Source: an uncultured bacterium (GTDB taxonomy: Bacteria > Auribacterota > Erginobacteria > Erginobacterales > Erginobacteraceae). From it: 50,312 nucleotides of DNA. The translations under genes were made by a program, and so were the position numbers. Positions 6,830-47,902 of the stretch are shown here, piece after piece. Location: the NCBI GenBank assembly GCA_964465735.1, contig CAYXKT010000003.1, positions 1 through 50,312 on the forward strand. The letters run 5' to 3'. The notes below the pieces were generated by a model. It was not told the DNA's origin, did not search any database, and saw only the letters and a list, made by a program, of their open reading frames with translations. Position 1 is the first letter of the stretch; each line of letters opens with the position of its first letter.

Positions 6830-6862
6830 TCTCTAATGTCGGCTGAACTCCGGTTTGCTAGT

Positions 6863-8599: not shown

Positions 8600-8709
8600 T
8601 GCTTCAAATTTCTTAGTTTGCTCTTGCTTCAGTTCCTGGCCAGCCCACTGAGTACACGTATTAACACTGATTATAATTACGACTACCCCAACTCCGTGGT
8701 CCGAGGTGT

Positions 8710-10559: not shown

Positions 10560-10581
10560 TGGATCGCGCAGTTGGCCGGGT

Positions 10582-20076: not shown

Positions 20077-20461
20077 AGTTTTCCTCCGGGTAAAGGAGAA
20101 CATTTAAAGTGTCGTAAAAGAAATGATTATAGACAGATTAACTTACTCTATAACCATAACACAGAGAGAAGATATGTCAATGCGCGCAACTCTATAATAT
20201 TTATTTTTCTTCTCGGGAATAGTTTTTCTTATCTCGAGAGTTACTATAGCATATTCCGTGCCAGCATTAAAATATAATGAGAAAAATTCGAGTATATGGG
20301 TTGACAGGGAGAAAGCTTATGAACAAGAAGCCCTTGGCGGGCAAGATATGTCCCGTTACACGGCAATATATTCTGTGATAGCTGGTACTGTTCGGGTAAA
20401 GTTGAGTTATCCAGAGCTTGGATGATTTATACGGCATCACTTTTCCAACTCGGTGAAAATA

Positions 20462-21100: not shown

Positions 21101-21209
21101 AGACGAACTCTCCCCGGAAGATGTTGCCGTAGGCCAGGATACCCGCCGCGATCAGGATCAGTCCGGCGGCGGCGACCCGCCGCCGATCATTTCCCGGCGG
21201 TAACTTCAT
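20997..21209 (-). pseudogene. N-terminal remnant of a PMT/TMTC-like GT-C gene
   Basis: The 70-aa ORF MKLPPGNDRRRVAAAGLILIAAGILAYGNIFRGEFVYDDI has a TM helix plus the FVYDD motif, as in the gene at 1..2181. It then leaves the frame and overlaps the TPR ORF by 104 nt in another frame. The whole polytopic core is missing. Confidence 0.5.
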
Positions 21210-33378: not shown

Positions 33379-34191
33379 AAATCAGCGAGCTTGAAAAGCG
33401 TGAATACAGAGAAGATCAGCCGGGAGATCAGGCAGCGACTGGTGCGGATGCACCAGAAAGGGTCTCACTTCGGCTCGGCGATGTCGATTGTTGATATCCT
33501 GACTGTACTCTACTTCCGCGTGATGAATATTGACTCTCCGGACGACCCCGGCCGAGACCGGTTCATTCTCTCCAAAGGTCACGCCGCCTCCGCCTGGTAC
33601 GCCACTTTGGCTCGGAAAGGATTTTTCGATGAGAAACTTCTCGATACCTATCTCAAAGACGGCGGCCAGCTCTACGGCCATCCGGTTCGCTGCGGAGTCC
33701 CCGGGGTGGAGGCTTCGACCGGTTCGCTCGGCCACGGGATCAATATTGGATCCGGGATGGCTCTGGCCGGGAAGAACGATGGGAAAGATTATCGGGTTTA
33801 TGTTCTGATGGGGGATGGGGAGATCCAGGAGGGCAGTGTCTGGGAGGGGGCGATCCTGGCCGCCCGGCTGAAACTCGATAACCTGGTGGTGATCGTCGAT
33901 GCCAACAACCTCCAGGGTTTCGACCGGGTGGAGAATATCCAGCCGATCCGGACCTTCAAGAAAAAGTGGGAGGCCTTCGAGTGGGGGGCGCGTGAGGTGG
34001 ATGGCCACGATCACGACCAACTGGAGAGGGCTTTGCGCGAGGCACCCTTCGTCCCCGGCGCACCCTCGGTGGTGATCGCCCGGACGACCAAGTGCAAGGG
34101 AGTGAAGGAGATGGAGGATTGTTTTGAGTCCCACTATCTCTCGGTGCCGAAGGATAAGGTAGAGTGTTACTGCCGGGGACTGGAGGAGTGA
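33322..34191 (+). CDS. Transketolase, N-terminal (thiamine-diphosphate-binding) subunit
   Basis: GSHFGSAMSIVDILTVLYF, ILSKGHAASAWYA, GSLGHGINIGSGMALA and VLMGDGEIQEGSVWE are classic transketolase N-terminal motifs. The track start at 33322 is a GTG. TTG 33391 or GTG 33400 are more likely starts judging by the usual N-terminal length. Confidence 0.85.
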   Translation: MIDCQGAAGVDLPDCLPIHKSASLKSVNTEKISREIRQRLVRMHQKGSHFGSAMSIVDILTVLYFRVMNIDSPDDPGRDRFILSKGHAASAWYATLARKGFFDEKLLDTYLKDGGQLYGHPVRCGVPGVEASTGSLGHGINIGSGMALAGKNDGKDYRVYVLMGDGEIQEGSVWEGAILAARLKLDNLVVIVDANNLQGFDRVENIQPIRTFKKKWEAFEWGAREVDGHDHDQLERALREAPFVPGAPSVVIARTTKCKGVKEMEDCFESHYLSVPKDKVECYCRGLEE

Positions 34192-34193
34192 GA

Positions 34194-34307
34194 GTAATCG
34201 GTAACCAGTGGACCAGGTACCGATTACCGATTACTGATCACCGATTACCGATCACCGATTACTGATTACTGATTACTGATTACTGATTACCGAATACTGG
34301 TTACCGA
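34194..34307. repeat. Heptamer tandem array (Y)GATTAC x12 with inverted units at its 5' side
   Basis: Twelve contiguous 7-mers fill 34221..34304 (cgattac, tgattac, variants tgatcac/cgaatac/tggttac). They are preceded by the inverted units gtaatcg gtaacca. The array fills the whole spacer between the two transketolase subunit genes. Confidence 0.9.
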
Positions 34308-34308
34308 A

Positions 34309-35241
34309 ATGAGACAGGCATTCATAAACACACTGATGGAGTTGGCCGAACGGGACGACTCCATCTATCTCCTGACCGGGGACGCCGGTTTTACGATCCT
34401 GGAGCGGTTCCGGGACCGCTTCCCGGGTCGTTACTACAACGTGGGGATCGCCGAGGCGGCGATGATCGGCCTGGCCGCCGGGTTGGCGATGTCCGGGAAG
34501 ACCGTCTTTGTCTATTCGATCGTCCCCTTCGTCACGATGCGCTGCTTTGAGCAGGTCCGAATCGACCTCTGCTATCAGAACCTTCCGGTCAAGCTGGTCG
34601 GGGTGGGGCAGGGAGTCACCTACGGGACCGCCGGGGCCACCCACCACGCCATCGAGGATATCGCCGTGATGCGGGCCTTGCCCAATATGACCGTGATCTG
34701 CCCGGGGGGGCCGATCGAGACCAAAAAAGCCGTTGCCGCCTCTCTCGATCTTACCGGCCCCTGCTATATCCGACTGGGGAAGTCCGGCGAACCGACAGTC
34801 CACAAGAGTGAGGATATCGATTTCGCGATCGGTCGGGGGATCAGGGTTCGGAAAGGGGAGGGGGTAGCCCTGGTCGCCACCAGCAATATGGTCCCGACCG
34901 CGGTCGCCACCGCCGAATTACTGGAGAAGGAAGGCTGGAAGCCGGAAGTAATCAGTATGCATACGGTAAAGCCGATCGACCGGGAACTGCTGGCTGAGAC
35001 TGCCCGACGCTGCCCGCTGATCGCCACCCTGGAAGAACACAATCTGATCGGTGGTCTGGGTTCGGCGGTGGCGGAAGTGATCCTGGCGGATAATCTCCAC
35101 GCCCGGTTGATCACCTTCGGGATCCCCGATACTTACGCCCCGGTAGCCGGAAGCCAGGAGTATCTGCGGGAGTTGTTTGGCTTAACACCGTCCCAGATTG
35201 AGGCGGTAATCAGGGGAGAATTAGAGGATAGTAAGCAGTGA
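34309..35241 (+). CDS. Transketolase, C-terminal (pyrimidine-binding plus C-terminal domain) subunit
   Basis: 310 aa. GDAGFTILERF..., GIAEAAMIGLAAGLAMSGK and YGTAGATHHAIEDIAVMRALPNM match the transketolase/DXS pyrimidine-binding domain layout. Confidence 0.85.
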   Translation: MRQAFINTLMELAERDDSIYLLTGDAGFTILERFRDRFPGRYYNVGIAEAAMIGLAAGLAMSGKTVFVYSIVPFVTMRCFEQVRIDLCYQNLPVKLVGVGQGVTYGTAGATHHAIEDIAVMRALPNMTVICPGGPIETKKAVAASLDLTGPCYIRLGKSGEPTVHKSEDIDFAIGRGIRVRKGEGVALVATSNMVPTAVATAELLEKEGWKPEVISMHTVKPIDRELLAETARRCPLIATLEEHNLIGGLGSAVAEVILADNLHARLITFGIPDTYAPVAGSQEYLRELFGLTPSQIEAVIRGELEDSKQ

Positions 35242-35690: not shown

Positions 35691-36824
35691 ATGAAACACA
35701 ACCACAAATACCTTGCCCTCCGCCGCTACTGGAACCGGGGACGGACCCTGGCCCATATCCTGGCAATCAAGGCGTTTCGTAAAAAGCGCTATCCCTTCTA
35801 CGTCAACCTGGTCATCAACAGTCGGTGCAACCTGAAGTGCGCCTACTGCTTCGGGAGCTACTCCAACCGGCAGACACCGGACTGGGCTTACGAGGATCTG
35901 GTCAAGTTGATCGACGACCTTTACGACCGGGGGACCAGGTACATTTTGGTCCAGGGCGGGGAACCGATGCTGCATAACGATCTGGGAAAGATATTTCGCT
36001 ATATCGACAGCAAGGGGATCGTCACTGCCCTGGTCACCAATGGCCAGTTCCCCGACCGGATCCGCCAGACCCCGGAGATTGCCCTGCTCGACAACATCTG
36101 CTTTTCCCTCGACGGGAATCGGGAGGGTAACGACCGGGTCCGGGGAAAGGGGACCTTCGACAAGGTTCTGGAATCGATCCAGGTGGTGAAAGAGGTCCAT
36201 AAGACCCCGATTCGGATCAATTCGACCATCACCAAGTACACGGTTGATGATGTTGATTTTATGGCCGAGTTTATGCGGAAGAATAACATCGAGTGGGGGA
36301 TCAACTTTCTCTTTAAGGGGGACGAGCGGTTGGGGGAAGAGGACCTGGCCCCGGACGATGCCGCGATTGTCCGCTACCAGGAGAAGTTCATCGATTACAT
36401 CAAGCGCGGCTACCCGATCTTCTCCACCACCAAGATCCTCCGTTACACATTAAGCTGGCCGGTGCCCTATTCGAGAAAGTTTCTCGGCAAGGAAGAATCG
36501 CTGCGACTGCTGGGGAAGAAGGCGATCGAGTGTCAGTATGGCAACTACGAGATCGTGATTGACGAGGATGGCCGACTCTATCCCTGCCAGGGGATGCAGG
36601 GGATGTTCGACGGAAAGAATCTCAAGGAAGTCGGTTTCGATGAGGCTTTTAAGCATCTGGAGACCAAGCCTTGCTATACCTGTTACCTGGTCTCAATGAT
36701 CAACACCTCGGCGATGATCAACTGGGACCTGAACGTGATCGGGGAGACGGTGGCCGGGACCTTCCGGAGCCGGCTACTGAAAAAAACAAAAGCGGGAGTA
36801 CCAAAAGCGGGAGTGATTGAGTGA
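35691..36824 (+). CDS. Radical SAM enzyme with SPASM/twitch-like C-terminal Cys motif (paralog group, rSAM-1)
   Basis: 377 aa with CNLKCAYC (CxxxCxxC), GGEPMLH, VTNG and SLDGNREGNDRVRGKGTF. The C-terminal part reads CQYGNYEIVIDEDGRLYPCQ...CYTCY. Confidence 0.85.
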   Translation: MKHNHKYLALRRYWNRGRTLAHILAIKAFRKKRYPFYVNLVINSRCNLKCAYCFGSYSNRQTPDWAYEDLVKLIDDLYDRGTRYILVQGGEPMLHNDLGKIFRYIDSKGIVTALVTNGQFPDRIRQTPEIALLDNICFSLDGNREGNDRVRGKGTFDKVLESIQVVKEVHKTPIRINSTITKYTVDDVDFMAEFMRKNNIEWGINFLFKGDERLGEEDLAPDDAAIVRYQEKFIDYIKRGYPIFSTTKILRYTLSWPVPYSRKFLGKEESLRLLGKKAIECQYGNYEIVIDEDGRLYPCQGMQGMFDGKNLKEVGFDEAFKHLETKPCYTCYLVSMINTSAMINWDLNVIGETVAGTFRSRLLKKTKAGVPKAGVIE

Positions 36825-36896
36825 TGGAGTGATGGAGTGATGGAGTGATGGAGTGGTGGTGATTAACCCAGTACTCCATTTCTCCAATACTCCAGG
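36811..36896. repeat. Octamer array GAGTGATG x6 plus inverted partner forming a hairpin
   Basis: The array at 36811..36858 reads gagtgatt gagtgatg x4 gagtggtg and overlaps the last codons and the TGA stop (36822..36824) of rSAM-1. The partner cagtactccatttctccaatactcca lies at 36869..36896. Confidence 0.85.
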
Positions 36897-36927
36897 TCAA
36901 GAGAACGCTTAATAATGGTCACCTGAT

Positions 36928-37752
36928 ATGGTCGCTCAAGCCGACAACGTCGACCTCTCCATCATTATGCCCGCTCTCAACGAGGAGGAAAATATCGCCT
37001 CCGCGATTGAGCATACGCTGGCCGCCTTTTCCGCTCACGATTTGAATGGTGAGATTATCGTGGTCAATGACGGCTCCACTGATCGCACCCCGCAGCTTGT
37101 TGAAGAGATTGCCGGGCGAGACGGAAGGGGAAATATCCGGATGGTCCACCATCGAACTCCCCAGGGTTTGGGAGTGGCATTTCGCGATGGTGTGAAGGAA
37201 GCGGCAGGCAAGGTGGTCGCTTTTATGCCCGGCGACGACGAGAATGACCCGGGGGAGATTATGCGTTACTTCTGGCTGCTCACCCAGGTGGATATGGTGG
37301 TCCCCTTTGTCTATAACAAGGAAGTTCGGCCGAAGATCCGGACCTGGATCTCCAAAGTATTTCGGATGATCGTCAACGTCAGCTTCGCGGTCAACTTCAA
37401 CTATACCAATGGCACCGTTCTCTATCGCCGGGAAATCTTGGCCAGCGCTCTCAACCGCTCCGCCGGATTCTTTTTTCAGACCGAGAACGTGGTGAGGGCG
37501 GTCTGGAGCGGCTACCTCTTCGCCGAGGTGCCCTACCGGTTGGCGGTCCGCGCCGGTGGGGAGTCAAAGGCCATCTCCTTGAAGTCGTTGAGCCAGGTGA
37601 TGGGCGACTACCTGGCCCTGGTCCGGGAGATTTATTTCTCCCCGGAGAAAAAAGCCGGGCGGCAACCTGTCCCCGGCACTGTCTCCGAAATCCGTCGCCA
37701 CGAGACCATCCAGAGCGGCCTCGCCAAACCGGGTAAATACAGCCGGGAATAA
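36928..37752 (+). CDS. Family-2 glycosyltransferase, polyprenyl-phosphate sugar synthase type (DPM1/ArnC/GtrB-like)
   Basis: 274 aa with LSIIMPALNEEENI, IIVVNDGSTDRT, a FMPGDDENDP acidic motif, and length and layout typical of the family. Confidence 0.8.
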   Translation: MVAQADNVDLSIIMPALNEEENIASAIEHTLAAFSAHDLNGEIIVVNDGSTDRTPQLVEEIAGRDGRGNIRMVHHRTPQGLGVAFRDGVKEAAGKVVAFMPGDDENDPGEIMRYFWLLTQVDMVVPFVYNKEVRPKIRTWISKVFRMIVNVSFAVNFNYTNGTVLYRREILASALNRSAGFFFQTENVVRAVWSGYLFAEVPYRLAVRAGGESKAISLKSLSQVMGDYLALVREIYFSPEKKAGRQPVPGTVSEIRRHETIQSGLAKPGKYSRE

Positions 37753-37833
37753 TTACGGGATAACCGGATAGTTTTTTTAGACAAGATAACAGGATCTCCA
37801 GGATGAAGCTTCTAAAGGGATGCTTTATCTAAA

Positions 37834-37994
37834 CCTAAATTGAGCGATTCTATGCGGCGAACTGCACCAATCTTTTGAGTCCGAACGGATATTGAAAATC
37901 CTCGCCATATCTCCTGGATATGGCTGCGGTTTTCGCAACCCGTCGGCCAGCAAAATCTTAGCACGTTTCATCCGCAATAATCGCTCAAATTAGG
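37834..37994. mobile_element. 161-bp MITE, copy 3
   Basis: It has the same orientation and length as copies 1 and 2. It is flanked by the 5-bp duplication CTAAA (37829..37833 and 37995..37999). Confidence 0.9.
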
Positions 37995-38017
37995 CTAAAG
38001 GTTATTTTCGTTGATTG

Positions 38018-38403
38018 ATGAAATACGAGGAGTTGACGAAAAAAGTTATTGGATGTGCTTACCGGGTATATAACCGGATGGGATTCGGGTTTTTGTAAAG
38101 TGTCTATGAAAGATGTTTAGCATTGGAATTAAGAAACCCGGGATACAATTCGAGGAGCAGAAAAAAATCGAGGTATTTTATGGTGGGGAATTGGTGGGAG
38201 ATCTCGTGGCTGACCTCGTCATTGCAGATGCTGTAATTGTTGAATTAAAATCCGCTCGAACCATCAGTAAGGCTCACGAAGTCCAGTTAGTCAACTATCC
38301 GGCAGCAAGGTAAAAGTCGGTAGGACTACTTGTCAACTTTGCGGAAAACGAAGTCCAAATTAAAAAAAAGTTAAAAGATCCTCAGCCAAGACCTATTCCA
38401 TAA
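38018..38403 (+). pseudogene. GxxExxY-family (PD-(D/E)XK-like) small protein gene, inactivated
   Basis: The frame reads MKYEELTKKVIGCAYRVYNRMGFGFL-TAA-SVYERCLALEL. The TAA at 38096..38098 replaces the E of the eponymous GxxExxY motif. A 1-nt frameshift in the cccggg run (38137..38142) leads to ...GIQFEEQKKIEVFYGGELVGDLVADLVIADAVIVELKSA...QLVNY. A second in-frame TAA (38311..38313) precedes ...VGLLVNF. The track ORF 38113..38313 is the middle fragment. Confidence 0.75.
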
Positions 38404-38507
38404 ATTTAGGCTTGCGATCCCATTACCATCCATTCTGCAATACCCTAAACAACAATCCAGCAAATCCTGTTATCCCGTCTAAAATCAACCCAGAAGATCT
38501 CATCAAA

Positions 38508-39629
38508 ATGGAAAAAGAGAAGAGTCAAAAACTGGTCCTCGATGGACACAAGCTGGCCTGGCATAAGGATCGGGTGGAAGCCTGGCTGGCCGGGGAGCGG
38601 ATCGCCCCGATCACCATCGACTGTGCCCTGACCCGGCGCTGTACTTACAGCTGCGTCTACTGCTACAGCAAGCTCCAGATTCACGACGAGCAGAAGATGA
38701 CCCGGGACGTCATCTTCCGCTTCCTTGACGATGCCGCCGAGATCGGGGTCAAGGCAGTCAGTCTCGTCTCAGACGGAGAGTCAACCTGCTCCCCCCATCT
38801 CGAGGACGCGATCGTCAGAGGGAAGGCCAATGGGTTGGATATGGCCCTGGGGACCAACGGCTACCTGCTGAAGCTCGAACGGCTGGAGGAGATCCTCCCC
38901 GCCCTGACCTATCTCCGTTTTAACATCTCCGCCGGGGAGCGGGACGCTTACGCGAAAGTGATGGGCTGCCAACCGGAGGCCTACGACCGGGTCTTGAAGA
39001 TCGTCCGAGAGTGTGTCCGGATCAAGCGGGAGAAGGGGTTGGCTGTAACTATCGGCCTGCAGATGGTCCTCCTCCCCGAGTTCGCCGATCAGGTTGTCCC
39101 TCTATCCAAATTGGGGAAGGAACTGGGCGTCGATTACACCGTGATCAAACATTGCTCCGATGATGAACTTCACACCCTGGGGGTCGATTACTCAAAGTAT
39201 TTTAGTTTGGGCGATATTCTCCAAGAGGCCGAGAGTTATTCCACCGGAGATTATCTGGTTAAGGCCAAGTGGTCGAAGATTATGTCCGGTGGGGAACGCA
39301 AGTACTCCCGCTGTTATGGGGCTCCCTTTATGCCTCAGTTCTCCGGTTCCGGCCTGGTCGCCCCCTGCGGGATGCTCTTCAACAGTCGCTACCAGGATAA
39401 GTTCCACATCGGGAGTATCATCGACACCCCCTTCAAGGAGATCTGGCAGAGCGACCGTTACTGGGAGGTGATGGATCTTCTTGCCTCGGATAAATTCGAT
39501 GCCCGCACCGACTGCGCCTGCCTCTGTCTCCAGCACAAGATCAATGAATATCTCTGGGATCTGAAGGAGGGAGTTATCGCCTTGGGCGAACCCTCGGGAG
39601 AACCCCCGGATCACATTAATTTCATTTAA
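38508..39629 (+). CDS. Radical SAM enzyme, distinct family with Cys-rich C-terminus (rSAM-2)
   Basis: The track ORF starts at 38412. The preferred ATG is at 38508 (MEKEKSQKLVLDGHKLAWHKDRVEAWLAGERIAPITIDCALTRRCTYSCVYC). The CxxxCxxC motif is present. The C-terminal cysteines read RCYGAPF...APCGMLF...DCACLCLQHK. Confidence 0.8.
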   Translation: MEKEKSQKLVLDGHKLAWHKDRVEAWLAGERIAPITIDCALTRRCTYSCVYCYSKLQIHDEQKMTRDVIFRFLDDAAEIGVKAVSLVSDGESTCSPHLEDAIVRGKANGLDMALGTNGYLLKLERLEEILPALTYLRFNISAGERDAYAKVMGCQPEAYDRVLKIVRECVRIKREKGLAVTIGLQMVLLPEFADQVVPLSKLGKELGVDYTVIKHCSDDELHTLGVDYSKYFSLGDILQEAESYSTGDYLVKAKWSKIMSGGERKYSRCYGAPFMPQFSGSGLVAPCGMLFNSRYQDKFHIGSIIDTPFKEIWQSDRYWEVMDLLASDKFDARTDCACLCLQHKINEYLWDLKEGVIALGEPSGEPPDHINFI

Positions 39630-39638
39630 ACACAGTAT

Positions 39639-40120
39639 TCGGTAATCGGTGATGTATGTCAAAAGCTAAAGGGATTTGCGCGTTTATCGGATCTCCCAAC
39701 AGCTGGCCAGGGATATTTTTGAACTGATTAAGGATTATCCGAAAGAAGAGAAATATTCGCTTACGTCTCAAGTCCGCCGGTCCTCCCGTTCTATTGGGGC
39801 CCAAATCGCCGAGGCTTGGGCCAAGCGGTGATACCCGGCGCATTTTATCCGCCAGCTGACCGATTCCGATGGCGAGCAGCAGGAAACCCGGCATTGGATA
39901 GATGTCTCGCTGGATGGCGGGTATATAAATATAGACCAGCATCGGCCGTTGATGGATCAGTGTCGGGGCACAGGAAGAATGATCAGCGTTATGATAAGCA
40001 AATCCCCCCAGTTTTGCGGGAAGTCCGTGAAGGAAGATAGCGCCTGGTATCAGATCGAGGAAATTGAAGAGAGTTGATCCCCAGTTAAACCCAGCGAAGA
40101 TCCTGTTCACCGATTACCGA
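39639..40120. other. Inverted-repeat-bracketed spacer cassette carrying a four-helix-bundle pseudogene
   Basis: tcggtaatcggtga (39639..39652) and tcaccgattaccga (40107..40120) form a perfect 14-nt inverted repeat. Both arms are made of the GATTACC heptamer motif. Confidence 0.75.
39652..40077 (+). pseudogene. Four-helix-bundle protein gene (23S rRNA intervening-sequence protein family), inactivated
   Basis: The frame reads MYVKS-TAA(39667..39669)-RDLRVYRISQQLARDIFELIKDYPKEEKYSLTSQVRRSSRSIGAQIAEAWAKR-TGA(39829..39831)-YPAHFIRQLTDSDGEQQETRHWIDVSLDGGYI.... The motif pattern fP.eE.y.LtsQ.rRa..SI..NIAEg is typical of the family. Confidence 0.75.
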
Positions 40121-40125
40121 TCACA

Positions 40126-41187
40126 ATGCGCTTAAGTCTCACATATAAACGGGCGAAGATGCTCGCCACTCTCGCCTTCAGCCACCTCCTCTATAAGCGG
40201 CGGCCGCTCAATGTTTACCTGGCGGTCACCAATCGCTGCAACCTTAATTGTTACTATTGCTATGGCGATTACCCGGATCGCCGGAACTGGCGGGAGTTCA
40301 GCACGGAAGAGCTTTTAAAACTCTTTGATGACCTGGCGGCTCGGGGGACCTGTCTCCTCCAGCTTCAGGGGGGGGAACCGCTTTTGCGCAAGGATATCGG
40401 AGTCTTAATCGATGGGGTCCGGAAAAACGGGATGATCTGCGATATGATCACCAACGGGGTCCTGGTCGAAAAGAAGTTTGACCAGGTGAAGAAACTTGAC
40501 TCCATCTGTATCAGTCTTGATGGGAGAAAGGAGCTCAACGACCGGAATCGGGGAGAGGGGACCTTCGAGCCGATTATGCGGGCGATCGAACTTTGCACTG
40601 CCAACAAGATCGCCACTCGGATCAACGCCGTCCTCACCGACCAGACCGAGCCGGAAGATCTGCGGTTTCTCGCCGAGACAGCGGAGCGGACCGGGTCTCT
40701 TCTGAATTTCTCCCTTTCCTTCCAGTATGAATCCCTGAAAGAGGCAGGACCCGCTCACCATCTTGATATTACCGATGAACAGGTTCGCAATCTTATAAAC
40801 CAGATTATCCAACTCCAGTCCGAGGGTTATCCCATCCAGTTCAGCCAGATGGCCCACGACCTCGCCCTTCAGTGGCCGTTTACTTATCAGAAAAGAATGG
40901 CTCGAGCGGAAGAGGTCCCTGCGCATTACCGTTATCCGAAGTGTTTTCATTCGGATTATGTCGTCTTTATCGATGGCGACGGCAGTGTTTATCCCTGCTG
41001 CAACTTCTGGGGGAAACCGAAGTGGAATATCCGGGAAGACGGATTGGACGCCTCTTTGGCCGGCGTGGATCGGGAGGGCTGTGAAGCTTGCTACATTCTC
41101 TCCTATCTCGACCGGAACCTGATCTTCGGGATGCGGCCCCGGACGCTTTGCCATTACGCCGTCCGCGCGTTGAAGGAATTATTGTGA
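40126..41187 (+). CDS. Radical SAM enzyme with SPASM/twitch-like C-terminus (rSAM-3)
   Basis: 353 aa with CNLNCYYC, GGEPLLR, ITNG and SLDGRKELNDRNRGEGTF. The C-terminal part reads CFHSDYVVFIDGDGSVYPCC...CEACY. Confidence 0.85.
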   Translation: MRLSLTYKRAKMLATLAFSHLLYKRRPLNVYLAVTNRCNLNCYYCYGDYPDRRNWREFSTEELLKLFDDLAARGTCLLQLQGGEPLLRKDIGVLIDGVRKNGMICDMITNGVLVEKKFDQVKKLDSICISLDGRKELNDRNRGEGTFEPIMRAIELCTANKIATRINAVLTDQTEPEDLRFLAETAERTGSLLNFSLSFQYESLKEAGPAHHLDITDEQVRNLINQIIQLQSEGYPIQFSQMAHDLALQWPFTYQKRMARAEEVPAHYRYPKCFHSDYVVFIDGDGSVYPCCNFWGKPKWNIREDGLDASLAGVDREGCEACYILSYLDRNLIFGMRPRTLCHYAVRALKELL

Positions 41188-42266
41188 ACCGGGTTCTCCT
41201 CGGTGTCAGGATTGCCTCCTCCCGCTTGCTGGGGAGTAGGATCCCCTTTTTTGTCCAGCTGGTTCCGACCTCGCGGTGCAATCTCAATTGCCGATATTGC
41301 TTTGGAGAGTTTCACGAGCGGGAGGGGGAGCACTTCTCCCTGGAGAAGATCGGGCGGGTTATTGACGGGTTGGCGGGGCTGGGGACCCGGTTCATCCTTC
41401 TCACCGGCGGTGAGCCGATGATGCACCCGGAGATATCGGAGATTATTCGGAAGATCTCTGATCATCGGATCGAAATCATCCTGGGGACCAACGGCCTGCA
41501 GGTAGCGGAGCGGATCGAGGAACTGTCGCCGGTGAAGACGTTCAGTATCAGCCTCGACGGTCCCCGGGAGCATCACGATTACTACCGGGGAGCGGGTTCA
41601 TATGACACGGCGATGAAAGCGATCCAGGCGGCCCGGAACCGGGGGAAGGGTGTGCAGATCCAATTCACGATGACGAAAGACCTGGTGAAATCTTTCGAGT
41701 ATATCCGGTCGGTGGCCGGAGAACTGGGTTGTTTTATCGGGATCAATATTCTCCGGCCTCAGCGGCAGGCTGAAGGGGGGATGAAAAACCCGGATGAATC
41801 AACGGAGCAGGAGATTGATCTTTTTCTTGATTACCTGATCGAAACTCGTCCTCCGGAACTCCCCTATCCGCGTTCCCTGCTGAAGCGGTTGAAATCCTGG
41901 CCCTATGATTATGGCCGGGATGTCATTATCCGCCAGGAGGATCTCCGGGGATACGATGCCATCCGCTGTTCGGCGGGGAGGTTTATGATCGCCATCGACA
42001 ACCGGGGGAACATCTACCCCTGCGCCAAGTGGTTTTATACTCGTCCTCTGGAGAATTGTGGTGACGGGGATATCGCTCGAGCCTGGCGGGATCTGCCGGC
42101 GGTCCAGTGCGCGGCCTGTCTCGACCCGGGCTTCAACCTTCTCAACGATACGCTCAGGTTCAACCCCGCCTCCCTGCTGGGTCTGCTCCGGAATTTTACC
42201 AGGGAAAAGAAAGGAAGAAATAACCAGGAAGGACACGAAGAGGAGACAAAGCAAATGCCGGAGTAA
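41184..42266 (+). CDS. Radical SAM enzyme with SPASM/twitch-like C-terminus (rSAM-4)
   Basis: The track ORF starts at 41088. The preferred GTG at 41184 overlaps the rSAM-3 stop (GTGA). Motifs are CNLNCRYC, GGEPMMH, GTNG and SLDGPREHHDYYRGAGSY. The C-terminal part reads CSAGRFMIAIDNRGNIYPCA...CAACL. Confidence 0.8.
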   Translation: MNRVLLGVRIASSRLLGSRIPFFVQLVPTSRCNLNCRYCFGEFHEREGEHFSLEKIGRVIDGLAGLGTRFILLTGGEPMMHPEISEIIRKISDHRIEIILGTNGLQVAERIEELSPVKTFSISLDGPREHHDYYRGAGSYDTAMKAIQAARNRGKGVQIQFTMTKDLVKSFEYIRSVAGELGCFIGINILRPQRQAEGGMKNPDESTEQEIDLFLDYLIETRPPELPYPRSLLKRLKSWPYDYGRDVIIRQEDLRGYDAIRCSAGRFMIAIDNRGNIYPCAKWFYTRPLENCGDGDIARAWRDLPAVQCAACLDPGFNLLNDTLRFNPASLLGLLRNFTREKKGRNNQEGHEEETKQMPE

Positions 42267-42357
42267 TGTAGTATTGGAGTGATGGAGTAATGAGACTTGA
42301 GCCCGGGTTTAATATGTTCGGTTTCCCAACACTGCAGTACTTTCACACTCCATCATC
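42261..42357. repeat. Octamer array GAGTRATG x4 plus distal inverted partner
   Basis: The array gagtaatg tagtattg gagtgatg gagtaatg (42261..42292) overlaps the TAA stop of rSAM-4 (42264..42266). The partner cactccatcatcc lies at 42345..42357. Confidence 0.75.
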
Positions 42358-42374
42358 CGGAAAGTCTTTATATT

Positions 42375-43685
42375 ATGCCCTATCCCAGGTTTAAAATCAG
42401 TATGCCGCTGGGGGAAGTAGCCCGCTCCCTGCTCAGTCTTTTCAGGCGGGGGGACCCTCAGGATCCGGAGAATTTCGCGGAGGCGTTCCGGCGGTTCGGC
42501 GGCTATGACCAGGTGCTCCTGACCGGTTCAGGCCGGGCCGGTTTTCGCCTGTTTTTGGAATGCGCCGGTTTCCCACCCGGATCTGAGATCATTTTTCCCG
42601 CCTATACATTTCACGTGATGCCGGCGGTGGCCGCCGAGTGCGGACTGCGGCCGGTCTTCGCCGATGTTGACCCTGCGACCTGGAACATTTCGCCGGAGTC
42701 GATCCGGGCGCGGCTTACCGAGCGGACCCGGGCGATTGTTCCCACCCATCTCTTTGGTGTCCCCGCCCCGATGGAGGAGATCTCTGCCATCGCCGGCGAG
42801 AGGGGTCTGATGGTGATCGCGGATTGCGCCCACGCCCTGGGGGCTCGTTATCGGGGAAAACCGGTGGGAACAATCGGCGACGCCGCTCTTTTTACCTTTG
42901 CGATGAGTAAGAATCTGCCCTGTTGGGGGGGAGGAGCTGTGGTTACTTGTGACCGCGCTCTGGCGGAGCGGATGCGGGAACGGATTGAAAGCAGTAATCT
43001 CCTTTCGGCCGCGGTGATCATCCGCCGACAGCTTTCCAATCTTCCCGGCATTCTCGGCACCCAATCCGCGATCTTTCCCTGGACGCTCTACCCGGCGCTG
43101 AGGGTCGCGGATTACCTGGAGAGCGATTTCTTTGATCGGCCGTTTGTTGAAGCAGTGACCGGTAATCAGTTATCGGTAGTCGATGATCGGTCCTTGGGGG
43201 ACGGGGCAGCCGCGGCCGGCCAGAAATCCCGGGTGGCCGGGATTTCGCCCTTTCAGGCCGCCGTGGGTCTGCGCCAGCTTAATCGTTTACCTAACTGGCT
43301 GGAAAGGCAGGCCGTCAACGCTCGCTATCTCCGCGGGCGGTTGGAAGTCTGTCCCGGCCTCCAGCTCCAGAAAGAACCGTCGGGCACCCGGTCCTCGTTT
43401 CTCTATGTCCGGGCCCGGGCCGAGGAGCCGGACCGGATCCGGAAGCGATTGCTCCGGCGAGGGATCGACACCAAGCCGGACGATATGCGCGACTGTTCCG
43501 CACTGAGCATCTTTCCTCCCGGTCCGCCCTGCCCGGTGGCCGGGAGTTTGGGGGAGCGCTGTATCGAACTGCCCTGCAGTCCGTTCTATTCCCAGCGGCA
43601 GATGAAGAGAATCGCCGATCGAATTCTCCTCGCCCTCTCCTCAGCGCGGACGGTTAACGATCCGGACCACCGGCCGGTTAAATGA
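42375..43685 (+). CDS. DegT/DnrJ/EryC1/StrS-family PLP-dependent sugar aminotransferase
   Basis: The track ORF starts at 42297. The preferred ATG is at 42375 (MPYPRFKISMPLG). Motifs are LLTGSGRAGFRLFLE, PAYTFHVMPAVAAECG, VPTHLFGVPAPMEEI, ADCAHALGARYRGKPVG and FTFAMSKNL (candidate PLP lysine). Confidence 0.8.
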   Translation: MPYPRFKISMPLGEVARSLLSLFRRGDPQDPENFAEAFRRFGGYDQVLLTGSGRAGFRLFLECAGFPPGSEIIFPAYTFHVMPAVAAECGLRPVFADVDPATWNISPESIRARLTERTRAIVPTHLFGVPAPMEEISAIAGERGLMVIADCAHALGARYRGKPVGTIGDAALFTFAMSKNLPCWGGGAVVTCDRALAERMRERIESSNLLSAAVIIRRQLSNLPGILGTQSAIFPWTLYPALRVADYLESDFFDRPFVEAVTGNQLSVVDDRSLGDGAAAAGQKSRVAGISPFQAAVGLRQLNRLPNWLERQAVNARYLRGRLEVCPGLQLQKEPSGTRSSFLYVRARAEEPDRIRKRLLRRGIDTKPDDMRDCSALSIFPPGPPCPVAGSLGERCIELPCSPFYSQRQMKRIADRILLALSSARTVNDPDHRPVK

Positions 43686-45181
43686 GCCAGAACACTTCCG
43701 ACCAGAGATTTTCGGAGTTGCTCAACGACGGGGAGCGCTATGGCCTGCGGGTGCTCTTCCTGCACAAGGCGGAGTCGGCGGAGATCAGCCACGAACCGGT
43801 CTTGCCGACCGGGATCGCCATCCTCGCCGCCCTCTGCCGGCGCAAACAAATCCCCGTCCGCTGTCTCGATTACTCAGTGATCCCCTACGACCCTGAACGG
43901 TTACGGAAAATCGTCCGGGAAGAGAAGATTAATGTGGTCGGGCTATCGGCCACCACTCAGGCGATCCCCTGGGCGTACCGCGCCATCCGCGATCTCCAGT
44001 CGATCAAGGCAAATCCCGTGATCCTGATCGGCGGTCCCCACGTCACCGTCCTCTACAAAGAGGCGATCGCCAACGGGGCGGATATCGTGGTCAGGAACGA
44101 AGGGGAACTGACCTTTCTGGAGTTGCTGCCGGTTCTGGACAGTCCCGCTCCGCGGAAACTGGGCGACAGATTGGCGGCGGTGAAGGGGATCGCCTATCGG
44201 AACTCGGCTGGAGAGATCGCTGTCAATCCCCCTAACGATAGGCTCCGGGATCTCGACCTGATCCCGTTCCCCGATCGGGACAGTTTTGAATTCCCGGAGA
44301 AGTATCATATGGCGGTCCGGATCGTGCGGGGCAACAGCTTCGCTATCCTGGGAACCCGGGGCTGTTCGGGACACTGTTTTTTCTGCTCCCGGGCGGTCTT
44401 TGGGAATACGATCTCCGCCCGCTCGGCGGAGAATATGGTGGAAGAGATCTGTCTGGTTAAGGAACGGTACCCGAAGATCACCCAGTTCGAGTTCTTGGAC
44501 GACTATCTTCTCTTCGATCTCGAGCGGATGAACCGGTTTTGCGATCTTTTGATCGAGCGGCAGCTGGGGTTGTACTGGTCGGCGGGAAACACCCGGGTGG
44601 ATAATATCGATCGGAGAACTTTAGAGAAGATGAAGGCTGCCGGTTGCTTCAAGGTTAATTTCGGCATCGAGGCCGGGACCGACAAGATTCTGAAGTCGAT
44701 CAACAAGGAGATCACGGTGGACGAGGCGAGGCGGGCGGTGGAAGTTGCGAAAGCAGCCGGTCTCTACGTCGGAGTCTTCTTTATCCTCGGCCATCATCGG
44801 GAGACGGTCGCCGATATTGAGCGGACGATCTCTCTGGCCCGGTCTTTGAAAGCTGATGCCGTCCAGTTCACCATCAACACCCCCTGGCCGGGGACGGCAA
44901 TGCATACATACCTGGATCGGAGAGGCCTGTTGCTTTCCAAGGAATGGGCCGACTACCAGTACTTTCAGAAACCGGTTTTCCGGACCGAGCACCTGACACC
45001 TCTGCTCCTTCAAAAGCTGCTGCGCCGGGCATACCTCAGTTATTATCTCGATCCGGCGCTTTACCTCCGGCATTTGCTGAATCTGCTCAAACGCCGGCAA
45101 TTCTATCTGTACTTTACGACGCTCTCCCTGATACTCTCCAACCTGTTTCAACGGTCGCCGCGTCGGAGAAAGGGAAAATGA
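43682..45181 (+). CDS. B12-binding-domain (class B) radical SAM enzyme (rSAM-5)
   Basis: 499 aa. The N-terminal Rossmann-like cobalamin-binding layout reads VVGLSATTQAIPWAYRAIRDL...VILIGGPHVT. It is followed by RGCSGHCFFC (CxxxCxxC). The start overlaps the aminotransferase stop (ATGA). Confidence 0.8.
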   Translation: MSQNTSDQRFSELLNDGERYGLRVLFLHKAESAEISHEPVLPTGIAILAALCRRKQIPVRCLDYSVIPYDPERLRKIVREEKINVVGLSATTQAIPWAYRAIRDLQSIKANPVILIGGPHVTVLYKEAIANGADIVVRNEGELTFLELLPVLDSPAPRKLGDRLAAVKGIAYRNSAGEIAVNPPNDRLRDLDLIPFPDRDSFEFPEKYHMAVRIVRGNSFAILGTRGCSGHCFFCSRAVFGNTISARSAENMVEEICLVKERYPKITQFEFLDDYLLFDLERMNRFCDLLIERQLGLYWSAGNTRVDNIDRRTLEKMKAAGCFKVNFGIEAGTDKILKSINKEITVDEARRAVEVAKAAGLYVGVFFILGHHRETVADIERTISLARSLKADAVQFTINTPWPGTAMHTYLDRRGLLLSKEWADYQYFQKPVFRTEHLTPLLLQKLLRRAYLSYYLDPALYLRHLLNLLKRRQFYLYFTTLSLILSNLFQRSPRRRKGK

Positions 45182-46230
45182 AAATAAACGATCTGGCATA
45201 TTTTGGCTGGTCGATCCTGAAGATGCATCTCAATCAGGGTAGCCGCATCCCGTTGAGCGTTCACGTCGGGTTGACCAATCGCTGCAACAATCGGTGCCGG
45301 TACTGCAATTTCCAGGCTCTTCCCCAGAAGGACACCTGGACCACGGAGGCTTTACTCCGCGTCCTGGAAGAGATGAAGAAGGCCGGGACACGTCGGGTCC
45401 AGTTGACCGGCGGCGAACCGATGCTCCGGCGGGATCTGGGAGAGGTGGTGGCCCGGGCCAAAGCTTTAGGGATGTTTGTCGGCGTCTCGACCAACGGCTA
45501 TGAAGTACCCGGCCGCCTGGACGAACTCCGGCCGGCCGACCTCGTCCAGATCTCCTACGATGGCCCCCCCGAAATCCACGGCTATCTGCGGGGAGAGAGG
45601 AGCGTTGCCGAAACGGCGGCGGCGATCGACGCCCTTTTGGTCAATGGGATACCGGTCTGGACCAATACGGTGCTCACCTCCGCCAATGCCGGGTACGTCG
45701 AAGAGATCGTGGAATACGCCGGGCGAAGGGGGATGGTGGCTAATTTTGTTTTGCTTGATTATTTCCTCCAGCCCGAAGAGCACTTTCATCCGGCATTAAA
45801 AGATATCCAGGACCTGGTGTTAAAGAGGGAAGAACGGCGCCAGGTCCTCTCCCGGCTGATCGAGTTGAAGAGGGCCGGCCGGCCGGTGGCCGGTTCGATA
45901 CCCTACTTTAAAAACGCTCTGGATTGGCCCTATGACGATCGGACCACCAGCCCCGAATCGTCGCCGCTGTACCGTTGTTGGTTTGGGAGGGCAGTGGCCC
46001 ACCTGGAAGCCGACGGGAAACTCTACGCCTGCGGGATGGGCGTGGGGAGAGTGCCGGGAATCGACGTGCGGGAGGTCGGATTCGAACAGGCCTGGCAACA
46101 ACTCAAGCCGCTGCCGGATTGTCAATCCTGTACGATGGCTTGCGGGGTGGAGGCGAATCTACTTTTTTCTTTGAATATTGGCAGCATACTGAATTGGATC
46201 AAGCAGTTGGCGGGGTCGAAGGCAAGCTGA
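45178..46230 (+). CDS. Radical SAM enzyme with SPASM/twitch-like C-terminus (rSAM-6)
   Basis: The track ORF starts at 44944. The preferred ATG at 45178 overlaps the rSAM-5 stop (ATGA). Motifs are CNNRCRYC, GGEPMLR, STNG and SYDGPPEIHGYLRGERS. The C-terminal part reads CWFGRAVAHLEADGKLYACG...CQSCTMAC. Confidence 0.8.
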   Translation: MKINDLAYFGWSILKMHLNQGSRIPLSVHVGLTNRCNNRCRYCNFQALPQKDTWTTEALLRVLEEMKKAGTRRVQLTGGEPMLRRDLGEVVARAKALGMFVGVSTNGYEVPGRLDELRPADLVQISYDGPPEIHGYLRGERSVAETAAAIDALLVNGIPVWTNTVLTSANAGYVEEIVEYAGRRGMVANFVLLDYFLQPEEHFHPALKDIQDLVLKREERRQVLSRLIELKRAGRPVAGSIPYFKNALDWPYDDRTTSPESSPLYRCWFGRAVAHLEADGKLYACGMGVGRVPGIDVREVGFEQAWQQLKPLPDCQSCTMACGVEANLLFSLNIGSILNWIKQLAGSKAS

Positions 46231-46309: not shown

Positions 46310-47902
46310 ATGAAGAAACCCTGGGTTATCCATCCGTTCTTGATGGCGCTCTTCCCCGGTCTTTTTTTTGTTACATATAATATCGGGGAGATAACCTTGA
46401 GTCGGGTTGACGCGATCGGCAGCTTGGTTATCCTGCCGCTGTTGTCTGCGCTGTTCTGGCTGACCCTGAGCTGGATAGTGAAAAATCGGCAAAAAGCCGG
46501 GTTGTTGGTTTCACTTTTCTTGTTCGTAATCTTTTCATACTATCCGGTTTACGATACCCTGCTGCGTATTTTTCGATATGAAGTTGACTATAGCAAAATA
46601 CTCAATGATGTCGTTCTCTCGCGGATACTTCTCTCCGGCAGCCTGATAATAATGGCCGGTTTGAGCTGGCGGATAATCAAAACCCGGAAATCTCTCGCGG
46701 ATGTCACCAGGGTTATCAACGTTTTCGCGGCCGGCCTGGTGGGGATTTCCCTGGTTCAATTGGGGGTCTATCTATATCAAAATTATCCGGCACTGAGAAG
46801 CGACGACCGGCTGGGATTGATCGTTGAAGAGGGGATTGTTAGGGGCGGCATTGAAAGTAGCGCGGGGCGCCGACTTCCCGATATCTATTATATTGTTCCC
46901 GACCGCTACGCCGGCGATAAATCGCTGAAAGAATTTTTCGGTTTCGATAACTTCGAGTTTATTGAATATTTGCGCAAAAAGGGATTCTATGTGGCCGCCG
47001 ACAGTTACGCGAATTATCCGAAAACATCCTGGTCGCTGGCCGCGACTTTGAATTATGAATACCTCGATGACTTAAGCGGTTTGTATCCGAAGGGGGTCAT
47101 AGATTTAAAGCCGTTGCATAAGAGAATTAAATATCATAAAGCGGGAAATTTCCTGCGGGCTAATGGTTATAAGTATATTCATTTCGGGTCGGGGGATGTG
47201 GAAAGGACGAATCGAAGTCCGATGGCCGATCAGAATATCGCCTACGCCTCGGCGACCAACTTAGTGGTGTCTTTGTATGAAGTATCGATCTTCTACCATA
47301 TCGCCCAATTATTTGGCTGGGAATATGATACCCGCCTCATCCATCGGAAAAGGATATTGTTCACTTTTGAAAAATTAGCGGAAATGCCTGACCTGGACAG
47401 AGATCAGCCAAAATTTATCTTTGCTCATCTGCTTTTTCCCCATCCGCCTTATGTATTTGACCGGAACGGCGATCGTCCAGCCCCGGATCAGTCAAGGGAT
47501 GAAAGGGAGAAATATATCTCCCAGTTGAAGCATTCCAACCAAAAGTTCAGGGAGCTTATTGATCAGTTGTTGATGAAATCTCCGGTACCCCCGATCATTA
47601 TTCTTCAAGCCGATGAAGGTCCCTTGCCGGACCGGTTTCAAAGCGACGAAAGAAATTTTGATTGGCGCTTGGCCAGCGGAGCCGAACTGCGGGAGAAGTT
47701 CGAGATCTTGAATGCATACTATTTGCCCGGCTTCGATTACAATCTTTTATATCCAGGGATAACGCCGATAAATACCTTCCGCCTGATATTTAACCATTAC
47801 TTTAACGCCGGATATGAATTATTGCCGGATAAGAACTACACGTTTGAAAAAATATTATACCCTTATGAATTTATCGAAGTGACGGAGCGGCTAAATGAAT
47901 AA
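46310..47902 (+). CDS. Membrane-anchored alkaline-phosphatase-superfamily protein (LtaS/EptA/sulfatase-like transferase)
   Basis: 530 aa with ~5 N-terminal TM helices. The soluble domain has PDIYYIVPDRYAG, NYPKTSWSLAATLN (candidate Thr nucleophile), FIFAHLLFPHPPYVF and ILQADEGP. There is no C/S-x-P-x-R formylglycine motif. Confidence 0.6.
   Translation: MKKPWVIHPFLMALFPGLFFVTYNIGEITLSRVDAIGSLVILPLLSALFWLTLSWIVKNRQKAGLLVSLFLFVIFSYYPVYDTLLRIFRYEVDYSKILNDVVLSRILLSGSLIIMAGLSWRIIKTRKSLADVTRVINVFAAGLVGISLVQLGVYLYQNYPALRSDDRLGLIVEEGIVRGGIESSAGRRLPDIYYIVPDRYAGDKSLKEFFGFDNFEFIEYLRKKGFYVAADSYANYPKTSWSLAATLNYEYLDDLSGLYPKGVIDLKPLHKRIKYHKAGNFLRANGYKYIHFGSGDVERTNRSPMADQNIAYASATNLVVSLYEVSIFYHIAQLFGWEYDTRLIHRKRILFTFEKLAEMPDLDRDQPKFIFAHLLFPHPPYVFDRNGDRPAPDQSRDEREKYISQLKHSNQKFRELIDQLLMKSPVPPIIILQADEGPLPDRFQSDERNFDWRLASGAELREKFEILNAYYLPGFDYNLLYPGITPINTFRLIFNHYFNAGYELLPDKNYTFEKILYPYEFIEVTERLNE

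Follow-up and report, generated by a model that had tools for sequence, protein, structure and literature searches.

Within a 50,312-nucleotide stretch of DNA from an uncultured bacterium of the Auribacterota (hereafter the window, whose positions are used throughout), we analyzed six radical S-adenosylmethionine (radical-SAM) genes that occupy positions 35691-46230 of the plus strand, four of which (rSAM-1, rSAM-3, rSAM-4 and rSAM-6) are paralogs. We propose, with a probability of about 0.6, that the four paralogs are tailoring enzymes for sugars or lipid-linked sugars and not peptide maturases. A sugar or lipid substrate is favored because a glycosylation context is conserved across phyla, because a precursor or RRE gene is absent, and because one relative is fused to a short-chain dehydrogenase/reductase (SDR). 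The observations underlying this reading are the homology of the paralogs, their cysteine pattern, their coupling in an operon, the absence of RRE and precursor genes, and a conserved linkage to genes for a family 2 glycosyltransferase (GT2), an aminotransferase, a B12-binding radical-SAM protein (B12-rSAM), transketolase, SDRs and GT-C-type glycosyltransferases. The initial annotation of this DNA had left two options, either substrate proteins encoded elsewhere, such as the secreted proteins at 2252-20076, or sugars or lipids; the second is favored on the three grounds just given, and no support was found for the first. The puzzle of SPASM/twitch enzymes without a peptide is largely answered by gene context, as the missing peptide gene is explained by the position of the paralogs in a surface-sugar cassette.

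The four genes had been annotated as open reading frames (ORFs) of a single architecture, and an ORF check, an alignment and pairwise BLASTP bore out their places, their lengths and this common architecture (Table 1). Aligned with one another, the proteins show 25-33% identity across 300-350 residues, and the associated E-values (1e-32 to 3e-53) mark their likeness as homology and not chance; rSAM-1, -3, -4 and -6 are true paralogs. The motifs listed in the initial annotation reappear as invariant alignment columns (RCN..C.YC, GGEP, TNG, S.DG and RG), with CX3CX2C as the cluster motif. Pfam Radical_SAM (PF04055) was detected in all four at 68.6-89.4 bits (cut-off 29.5 bits), which places them in the superfamily, and Fer4_12 was likewise detected in all four.

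The conserved C-terminal cysteines number exactly four in every paralog and follow the pattern CX12GX4C and, about 27 residues on, CX2C (residues 281, 299, 328 and 331 in rSAM-1, following cysteines at 46, 50 and 53). A SPASM domain reads CX9-15GX4C, a gap, CX2CX5CX3C, a second gap and a final C, with seven or eight cysteines and two [4Fe-4S] clusters; the twitch domain (BtrN/MoaA type) is a truncated SPASM, composed of a beta-hairpin flanked by two cysteines plus a downstream cysteine pair, with one auxiliary cluster. The CX2CX5CX3C segment of a full SPASM domain is absent from all four paralogs, and Pfam SPASM (PF13186) was found in rSAM-3 alone, below threshold (17.7 versus 21.5 bits), and not in the other three. 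The four-cysteine pattern is kept in all paralogs and in 14 orthologs, and in a structural model of rSAM-3 two strands (residues 279-282 and 287-290) lie between C273 and C291. The paralogs are accordingly predicted from their sequences to hold one auxiliary cluster and, because they combine CX12GX4C with a single CX2C and have no CX2CX5CX3C, are better labeled twitch-like than full SPASM. Of the earlier description as SPASM/twitch-type enzymes with a C-terminal cysteine block, the block stands.

What we regard as the decisive evidence on the paralogs is the neighborhood conserved around their homologs in other genomes. Profiling of these neighborhoods (loci are numbered with the prefix L) revealed a linkage to GT2, aminotransferase, B12-rSAM and GT-C genes that is kept across phyla. 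In Omnitrophota and Patescibacteria (L003, L007, L011, L012 and L014) the order is fixed: a SPASM-like radical-SAM gene, a GT2 gene (~230 aa), an rSAM-3 ortholog, a class-III aminotransferase, a B12-rSAM and two copies of a homolog of the 524-aa membrane protein of the window, some with TPR repeats. The first of these genes, directly 5' of the GT2, is a counterpart of rSAM-2 (~30% identical), and the homologs that come after the B12-rSAM are 32-34% identical to the 524-aa protein. These orthologous cassettes carry the class-III aminotransferase where the window has a DegT-type enzyme. GH5-like and PMT_2 genes precede the cassette in L003, L007 and L011, and GDSL/TPR proteins come after it in L003, L007, L011 and L014. 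In three close relatives of the window (L008-L010) the genes run TK_N, TK_C (the two halves of a split transketolase), rSAM-1, GT2, rSAM-2, rSAM-3, rSAM-4, YfhO-like GT-C, DegT, rSAM-6, epimerase and a second DegT; here the rSAM-1 orthologs occupy the equivalent position and are 80-88% identical, and the rSAM-6 orthologs are 61-65% identical. Orthologs of rSAM-4 were found at 48-87% identity, and those of rSAM-3 reach Omnitrophota, Patescibacteria and Dependentiae at 44-50% identity. Among loci with an rSAM-3 relative at least 44% identical, an aminotransferase lies directly 3' of this relative or at most ~3.6 kb downstream in 11 of 14.

The same classes of gene accompany other members of the family. 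In Kuenenia (L001) and in a groundwater locus (L089), family members occur with GT1, GT2, GT4 and NTP_transferase genes, epimerases, SDRs, a split transketolase, PMT_2 and several B12-rSAMs, and similar gene sets recur in Planctomycetota and Dependentiae. A split transketolase is paired with family radical-SAM genes in L015, L018, L025, L028, L030, L088, L089 and L090, a pairing that spans Firestonebacteria, Magnetococcales, Planctomycetaceae and Omnitrophota, and most loci of the family also contain B12-rSAM genes. One relative, P0226, is an SDR (adh_short) fused to a family radical-SAM domain, and its locus also encodes an NTP_transferase, an epimerase/dehydratase, TK_C, a GT2, a B12-rSAM and a methyltransferase with a C-methyltransferase-type domain (PF08484).

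In the window itself, 4-base overlaps join rSAM-3 to rSAM-4, DegT to B12-rSAM, and B12-rSAM to rSAM-6, and 30 bases separate rSAM-4 from DegT. Judged from this arrangement, the radical-SAM genes form a translationally coupled operon with their neighbors.

Two types of membrane protein in the window may bear on glycosylation outside the cytoplasm. The 20 best Foldseek matches of the AlphaFold2 (AF2) model of the 524-aa protein are all GT-C proteins (STT3, AglB, Pmt4, PglB and DPY19), a model-based result by which this protein weakly resembles a GT-C-fold glycosyltransferase. Homologs were found in L003, L005, L007, L009-L012 and L014, all annotated as 'hypothetical' at source; related loci carry two or three tandem copies, and those of Omnitrophota have C-terminal TPR repeats. 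The ORF extends to 33378 (576 aa); its homologs are ~520 aa long, so that translation probably starts at 33222 and the first 52 codons of ORF 31648-33378 are probably untranslated. The second type is PMT_2, found in the window as a GT-C glycosyltransferase and flanking the cassette also in L003, L007, L011 and L089. The GT-C transferase that belongs to a three-component glycosylation system is thus represented by this PMT_2 protein and, in related loci, by YfhO-like and PMT_2 proteins.

A lipid-linked sugar synthase acting with a flippase and a GT-C protein, and with auxiliary enzymes that diversify the sugar, is an established concept (PMC11127046). The three-component systems described (Gtr, Arn, CsbB/YfhO, Pgf and the C. 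youngae GT136 system; PMC11127046) resemble the locus in having a small GT2, accompanied here by several GT-C-type proteins (PMT_2, YfhO-like and 524-aa), and in their sugar-modifying auxiliary enzymes, to which Arn adds an aminotransferase. The locus differs from them in its six radical-SAM genes, in the absence of a flippase recognizable in general Pfam scans, and in a GT2 that stays below family cut-offs.

We then placed the paralogs among the reference SPASM/twitch families, using the scores of curated hidden Markov models (HMMs) as a proxy. No paralog reached a curated NCBIfam cut-off, the best scores being 81-98 bits against cut-offs of 225-650 (StsB, AhbC, HpnH, MoaA and PTO1314; also NirJ, ScmE and MftC); with all curated cut-offs missed, membership in a known family with a defined substrate did not materialize. 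StsB was the top match of rSAM-1 and rSAM-3 (98 and 96 bits; cut-off 625), HpnH was the best match of rSAM-4 (86 bits; cut-off 225), and the AhbC, NirJ, AhbD and MoaA models gave 70-93 bits (for example, 93 against a cut-off of 650). The BlsE model (TIGR04466) fell outside the best 25 matches of each paralog and scored 18.8 bits against rSAM-2. Sequence profiles searched against the PDB mainly matched the radical-SAM core of SkfB, BlsE, MoaA, GDGT-MAS and anSME. For the four-paralog profile SkfB was best and BlsE second (82 bits), with SpeY at 34 bits and BtrN at 21 bits, and GDGT-MAS aligned almost end to end, C-terminal hairpin included; the rSAM-3 ortholog profile best matched MoaA.

The AF2 model of rSAM-3, made from 14 orthologs, has alternating beta/alpha elements and a mean predicted local distance difference test (pLDDT) of 89.2. 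Its best fold match in the PDB was BlsE (7vob; E 7e-16, template-modeling (TM) scores 0.66/0.71, 348 aligned columns), followed by SkfB, SuiB, anSME, MoaA and PqqE, with DesII, AbmM and SpeY also present. The earlier suggestion that enzymes of this architecture would rarely act on anything but peptides proved to be overstated: well-known twitch or partial-SPASM enzymes use carbohydrates or other small molecules as substrates (BtrN, SpeY, BlsE, DesII, MoaA, HpnH and GDGT-MAS), and it is one of them, BlsE, that gives the best structural match.

An exhaustive profile search (E ≤ 1e-30) returned 975 family representatives (50%-identity clusters), and nearly all of the best 150 were full-length matches of ~340-370 aa. 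Its closest relatives belong to Candidatus Auribacterota/Aureabacteria/Euphemobacter and to metagenome-assembled genomes labeled 'PVC group', and family relatives carry the single annotation 'radical SAM protein'. Our literature search found no description of the paralog family or of the cassette, and the Auribacterota genome paper contains no mention of radical SAM or of glycosylation. Also among the representatives are P0304 (928 aa) and P0309 (663 aa), with three or two tandem radical-SAM/SPASM modules per polypeptide, an arrangement suggesting that consecutive steps are fused in some lineages.

By sequence, the paralogs appear similar in kind to the carbohydrate-directed twitch or partial-SPASM enzymes BtrN, SpeY and BlsE, without being members of those families. 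BtrN is a 2-deoxy-scyllo-inosamine dehydrogenase, and both BtrN and SpeY belong to aminoglycoside/aminocyclitol pathways in which the carbonyl is used by a paired pyridoxal-phosphate (PLP) aminotransferase (BtrN/BtrS in 2-deoxystreptamine formation). They share with the paralogs a radical-SAM core and a short C-terminal four-cysteine domain for one auxiliary cluster, as predicted for the paralogs, and the single-cluster cysteine arrangement of the BtrN twitch domain is matched by CX12GX4C...CX2C. Both enzymes are among the sequence or fold matches of the paralogs, and an aminotransferase neighbor is present in the window as well. They differ in that similarity is very low (the profile scores given above; TM ~0.35 for SpeY), and in that their genes lie in antibiotic clusters and those of the paralogs in a GT2/GT-C surface-glycosylation context, so that a dehydrogenase role for the paralogs would be by analogy. 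BlsE, the cytosylglucuronate decarboxylase of the blasticidin S pathway, acting on a sugar nucleoside, leads the fold matches of rSAM-3, ranks second in the PDB sequence search and has a C..G..Y.C hairpin that aligns; it differs in being only 20% identical, in its pathway context and in the low rank of its NCBIfam model.

We infer that the paralogs, together with the SPASM-like and B12-binding radical-SAM proteins, tailor a sugar that is nucleotide-activated, carried on polyprenyl phosphate, or both, within a three-component-type pathway. The activated sugar would be supplied by a kinase/nucleotidyltransferase together with an SDR epimerase/dehydratase. The twitch-like paralogs would then abstract hydrogen from sugar carbons and bring about oxidation, epimerization or rearrangement independently of oxygen. 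rSAM-3 could oxidize a hydroxyl group, needing neither oxygen nor NAD, and the neighboring aminotransferase would turn the resulting carbonyl into an amine; rSAM-3 is singled out as the carbonyl maker because the pairing of its orthologs with an aminotransferase is conserved. We regard such a dehydrogenase step feeding an aminotransferase, on the logic of BtrN/BtrS, as rather doubtful. The other paralogs may carry out further oxidations or epimerizations, the B12-rSAM may add a C-methyl group or rearrange the ring, and the split transketolase may place a two-carbon unit on a carbonyl. The small GT2 would next load the sugar onto polyprenyl phosphate, and a GT-C protein (PMT_2-type, the 524-aa protein, or YfhO-like in relatives) would transfer it outside the cytoplasm to a surface glycan or a secreted protein.

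Several points weigh against this assignment to sugars. All functional steps are drawn from gene context, and the step from dehydrogenase to aminotransferase is an analogy. The GT2 matches PgfS, ArnC, dolichyl-phosphate hexose transferase, AglJ and PpgS weakly, each below the NCBIfam cut-off, and the GT-C matches of the 524-aa protein are likewise weak (E 6e-4, TM ~0.4). No GtrA, MATE or EmrE-type flippase was detected in Pfam scans of the window's larger ORFs, a result obtained with no search aimed at flippases. The cassette is missing around two orthologs: the one in L013 is solitary, next to a PAP2 gene, and in Dependentiae the locus L006 (GCA_017999075.1) has only four family paralogs, a B12-rSAM and a GT9 heptosyltransferase fragment. 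Finally, SkfB, SuiB, anSME and PqqE score nearly equal to BlsE in fold and sequence; fold alone leaves the substrate class of the paralogs unsettled, because peptide maturases come this close.

An unlikely alternative is that the paralogs act on a lipid and not on a sugar, whether a polyprenyl carrier or the tail or head group of a membrane lipid, much as HpnH adds adenosyl to hopene, GDGT-MAS/Tes join lipid tails by C-C coupling, or HpnJ/calditol-type enzymes contract the ring of a lipid-bound sugar. The radical-SAM, GT2, aminotransferase and B12-rSAM genes of the locus mirror HpnH, HpnI, HpnO and HpnJ class for class, HpnH is the best NCBIfam match of rSAM-4, and the B12-rSAM (rSAM-5) best matches HpnJ over nearly its full length (168 bits; cut-off 578), ahead of BchE (163 bits), both far below cut-off. 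The near-complete alignment with GDGT-MAS points the same way, as do the presumably lipid-linked substrates of the GT2 and GT-C neighbors. However, the HpnH and HpnJ scores are far below their cut-offs (86 versus 225 and 168 versus 578 bits), no squalene-hopene cyclase or lipid-synthesis gene was found in the window or in the loci examined, and the Patescibacteria and Omnitrophota cassette loci show no hopanoid genes. A hopanoid-like identity was demoted to a minor rival on these scores. Nucleotide-sugar genes, SDRs, transketolase and the SDR fusion indicate instead that sugar carbons are modified, and if the sugar is modified while lipid-bound the lipid alternative merges with the tailoring of lipid-linked sugars that we favor.

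Maturation of a protein or peptide encoded elsewhere, be it the secreted proteins at 2252-20103, the glycosyltransferases or a distant precursor of a ribosomally made peptide with post-translational modifications (RiPP), is quite improbable. It would fit the fact that characterized SPASM/twitch enzymes are mostly peptide or protein maturases; anSME, SkfB, SuiB, PqqE and StsB share with the paralogs the radical-SAM core, the start of the SPASM motif (CX9-15GX4C) and comparable fold and HMM scores. StsB heads the NCBIfam matches of two paralogs, albeit far under its 625-bit cut-off, SkfB leads the PDB sequence matches of the paralog profile, and the upstream secreted proteins have signal-peptide-like N-termini. 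These maturases differ from the paralogs in the second block CX2CX5CX3C, in RRE domains, in precursor or PqqD genes and, for anSME, in a sulfatase with the formylglycine motif, and the SDR fusion and nucleotide-sugar context favor a small molecule. The secreted proteins also lie outside the neighborhood conserved in other phyla.

RiPP radical-SAM maturases have a neighboring precursor gene and a fused or separate RRE/PqqD-like domain. We listed the spacers of the locus and clustered the small ORFs (20-120 aa, outside long ORFs) of 87 loci and the window. Consistent with the initial annotation, neither the spacer listing nor the clustering gave a precursor-like small ORF in the locus spacers. 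No small-ORF cluster linked the window or the family loci, where cross-locus pairs came only from near-identical contigs, and no conserved small ORF or short precursor gene was found near the family in the window or in more than 60 related loci. From 7 distant loci the clustering did recover PqqD-like ORFs of ~95 aa, and from five it recovered Gly/Cys-rich peptides that resemble precursors (clusters L068/L077/L080 and L063/L067), as positive controls; these loci all fall within L063-L082, at ~25-30% identity with rSAM-3. With these PqqD-like proteins as tblastn queries, matches were obtained in 12 distant loci, but none in L001-L062 or the window. Since the scans were positive in distant RiPP-type loci and negative in family loci, the lack of a precursor belongs to the family itself and is not an oversight. 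Nor is there room for a fused N-terminal RRE domain, because CX3CX2C begins at residue 32-46 of the paralogs, after an N-terminal extension of only ~30-45 residues. Identity as a RiPP maturase was rejected on the intergenic small-ORF listing, the clustering and the PqqD/precursor tblastn searches, all negative for the family.

Identity as anSME, an enzyme with full SPASM, two auxiliary clusters and a partner sulfatase bearing C/S-x-P-x-R, was rejected as well, as the paralogs have four auxiliary cysteines only and the sulfatase-like neighbor at 46310-47902 is under the Pfam cut-off and has no formylglycine motif. The earlier statements that this protein has no C/S-x-P-x-R in a sulfatase context and that an anSME role is unsupported both hold.

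Separately, the distant loci L063-L082 (Desulfobacterales, Nitrospirae, Chlorobium and others) have radical-SAM genes beside PqqD-like genes and small ORFs rich in Gly, Cys and Asn (L068:12438-12710, L077:4283-4561 and L063:11072-11284, among others), which look like uncharacterized RiPP precursor families.

That the paralogs work on cofactors or tetrapyrroles as NirJ, AhbC, AhbD or MoaA do, with glycan genes adjacent by chance, is very improbable: this reading would draw on the 70-93-bit AhbC, NirJ, AhbD and MoaA scores, on MoaA heading the PDB sequence matches of the rSAM-3 ortholog profile and on the resemblance of the B12-rSAM to BchE, but the scores are far below cut-offs, heme d1, siroheme, molybdopterin and chlorophyll genes were not seen nearby, and the GT2/aminotransferase/GT-C linkage is not incidental, since it is conserved across phyla and translationally coupled.

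On the minus strand of the window the order is an HldE-related nucleotidyltransferase-kinase fusion, the NAD epimerase/dehydratase and a membrane protein; on the plus strand it is TK_N, TK_C, rSAM-1, small GT2, rSAM-2, rSAM-3, rSAM-4, DegT, B12-rSAM, rSAM-6, the sulfatase-fold membrane protein and a 650-aa membrane protein (Table 1).

Table 1. Genes of the window discussed in the text, in positional order.
Feature	Position	Strand	Description
Membrane protein(s) without assigned family	21187-24429		
PMT_2-type GT-C glycosyltransferase	24476-26923	-	Pfam PMT_2 30.2 bits, above cut-off; C-terminal F5_F8_type_C (discoidin) 32 bits
Adenylyl/cytidylyltransferase-pfkB kinase fusion	28992-30527	-	HldE-related; candidate nucleotide-sugar supply gene
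NAD epimerase/dehydratase	30656-31651	-	Candidate nucleotide-sugar supply gene
GT-C-like membrane protein	31648-33222	-	524 aa; no Pfam or PDB sequence match; AF2 pLDDT 88.5
Split transketolase	33322-35241	+	N-terminal subunit 33322-34191, C-terminal subunit 34309-35241; Pfam Transketolase_N, Transket_pyr, Transketolase_C
rSAM-1	35691-36824	+	377 aa; twitch-like; directly 3' of split transketolase genes; Pfam Radical_SAM 68.6 bits
Small GT2	36928-37752	+	274 aa; Pfam Glycos_transf_2 (PF00535) 88 bits; resembles polyprenyl-phosphate sugar synthases
rSAM-2	38412-39629	+	Distant SPASM-like radical-SAM; Pfam Radical_SAM and SPASM (27.9 bits, above cut-off)
rSAM-3	40126-41187	+	353 aa; twitch-like; widest orthology among the paralogs
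rSAM-4	41184-42266	+	360 aa; twitch-like; GTG start overlaps rSAM-3 stop codon
DegT/DnrJ/EryC1-type PLP sugar aminotransferase	42297-43685	+	PF01041 218.6 bits
B12-binding radical-SAM (rSAM-5)	43682-45181	+	Pfam B12-binding and Radical_SAM; coupled to DegT gene and rSAM-6
rSAM-6	45178-46230	+	350 aa; twitch-like; ATG start, ATGA overlap with B12-rSAM stop
Sulfatase/alkaline-phosphatase-type membrane protein	46310-47902	+	Pfam Sulfatase 24.2 bits, just under 25-bit cut-off
Membrane protein without assigned family	48231-50183	+	650 aa

Translation of rSAM-2 probably begins with the ATG at 38508 (373 aa), given the 375 aa of its homolog in L010. The kinase fusion scores 151 bits against HldE (cut-off 521), with rfaE domains I and II likewise below cut-off, and its domain order is the reverse of that of E. 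coli HldE, the adenylyl/cytidylyltransferase being N-terminal and the pfkB kinase C-terminal; its product may activate a sugar other than heptose. The sulfatase-like protein gave no PDB sequence match. Rfam at the gathering threshold returned nothing across the whole window, and no tRNA was found in it.

The spacers of the locus had been said to hold only repeat-derived ORFs or pseudogenes, and this was confirmed. Its two largest spacers contain a decayed PDDEXK_3/GxxExxY-type gene, frameshifted into two pieces (38015-38313), and a decayed fragment of a 23S-rRNA-IVP (intervening-sequence)/four-helix-bundle gene (39676-39831), an intact 149-aa copy of which lies in a related locus (L010:17117-17566). 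Short tandem repeats are also present: TACCGAT x13 (34218-34307) separates the two transketolase genes, GGAGTGAT x6 (36810-36859) is found upstream of the GT2 gene, where rSAM-1 has its 3' end, and GGAGTAAT x4 (42260-42292) lies immediately 5' of the DegT start. The GGAG-containing octamer repeats may be reiterated Shine-Dalgarno-like units, or slippage-prone repeats able to vary expression.

On the minus strand, 2252-20103 encodes a run of proteins with signal-peptide-like N-termini, among them a 3173-aa protein (Thr 11.9%, Gly 12.4%) with no Pfam domain, FG-GAP-repeat proteins, and one protein with a borderline PEP-CTERM match (20.6 versus a cut-off of 20.7 bits). Their earlier description as Pro/Thr-rich secreted proteins agrees with these N-termini, and their composition is only moderately Thr/Gly-rich. 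They are possible acceptors for the neighboring GT-C glycosyltransferases and, if connected with the locus at all, would more plausibly be such acceptors than radical-SAM substrates. Elsewhere, the radical-SAM cluster of the Dependentiae locus L006 adjoins a cob(I)alamin adenosyltransferase-family gene (CobA_CobO_BtuR), with GT2 and aminotransferase genes not nearby.

To our knowledge, no known polyprenyl-phosphate/GT-C glycosylation system includes radical-SAM enzymes, and the envelopes of Omnitrophota, Patescibacteria and Auribacterota are almost unknown. We tentatively suggest, as a possibility short of an expectation, that the cassette represents a widespread and undescribed oxygen-independent pathway of radical glycan tailoring in uncultured anaerobes (Auribacterota, Omnitrophota, Patescibacteria and some Planctomycetota), whereby an unusual sugar, be it amino, C-methylated, chain-extended or carbocyclic, is assembled by a transketolase, an aminotransferase and as many as six radical-SAM enzymes, maybe on polyprenyl phosphate, and is then attached by GT-C proteins to surface proteins or glycans. 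If so, twitch radical-SAM chemistry would for the first time be linked to three-component extracytoplasmic glycosylation, and sugars outside the known glycan repertoire would be predicted. The rigid cassette offers a compact gene set that could be reconstituted in a heterologous host: SPASM-like radical-SAM, GT2, twitch-like radical-SAM, aminotransferase, B12-rSAM and GT-C. About a thousand clusters now labeled 'radical SAM protein' would become assignable to carbohydrate tailoring, and the default assumption of peptide maturation for SPASM/twitch enzymes would be corrected. The uncultured and often host-dependent Omnitrophota, Patescibacteria and Auribacterota would then possess oxygen-independent routes to amino, branched or extended surface sugars.

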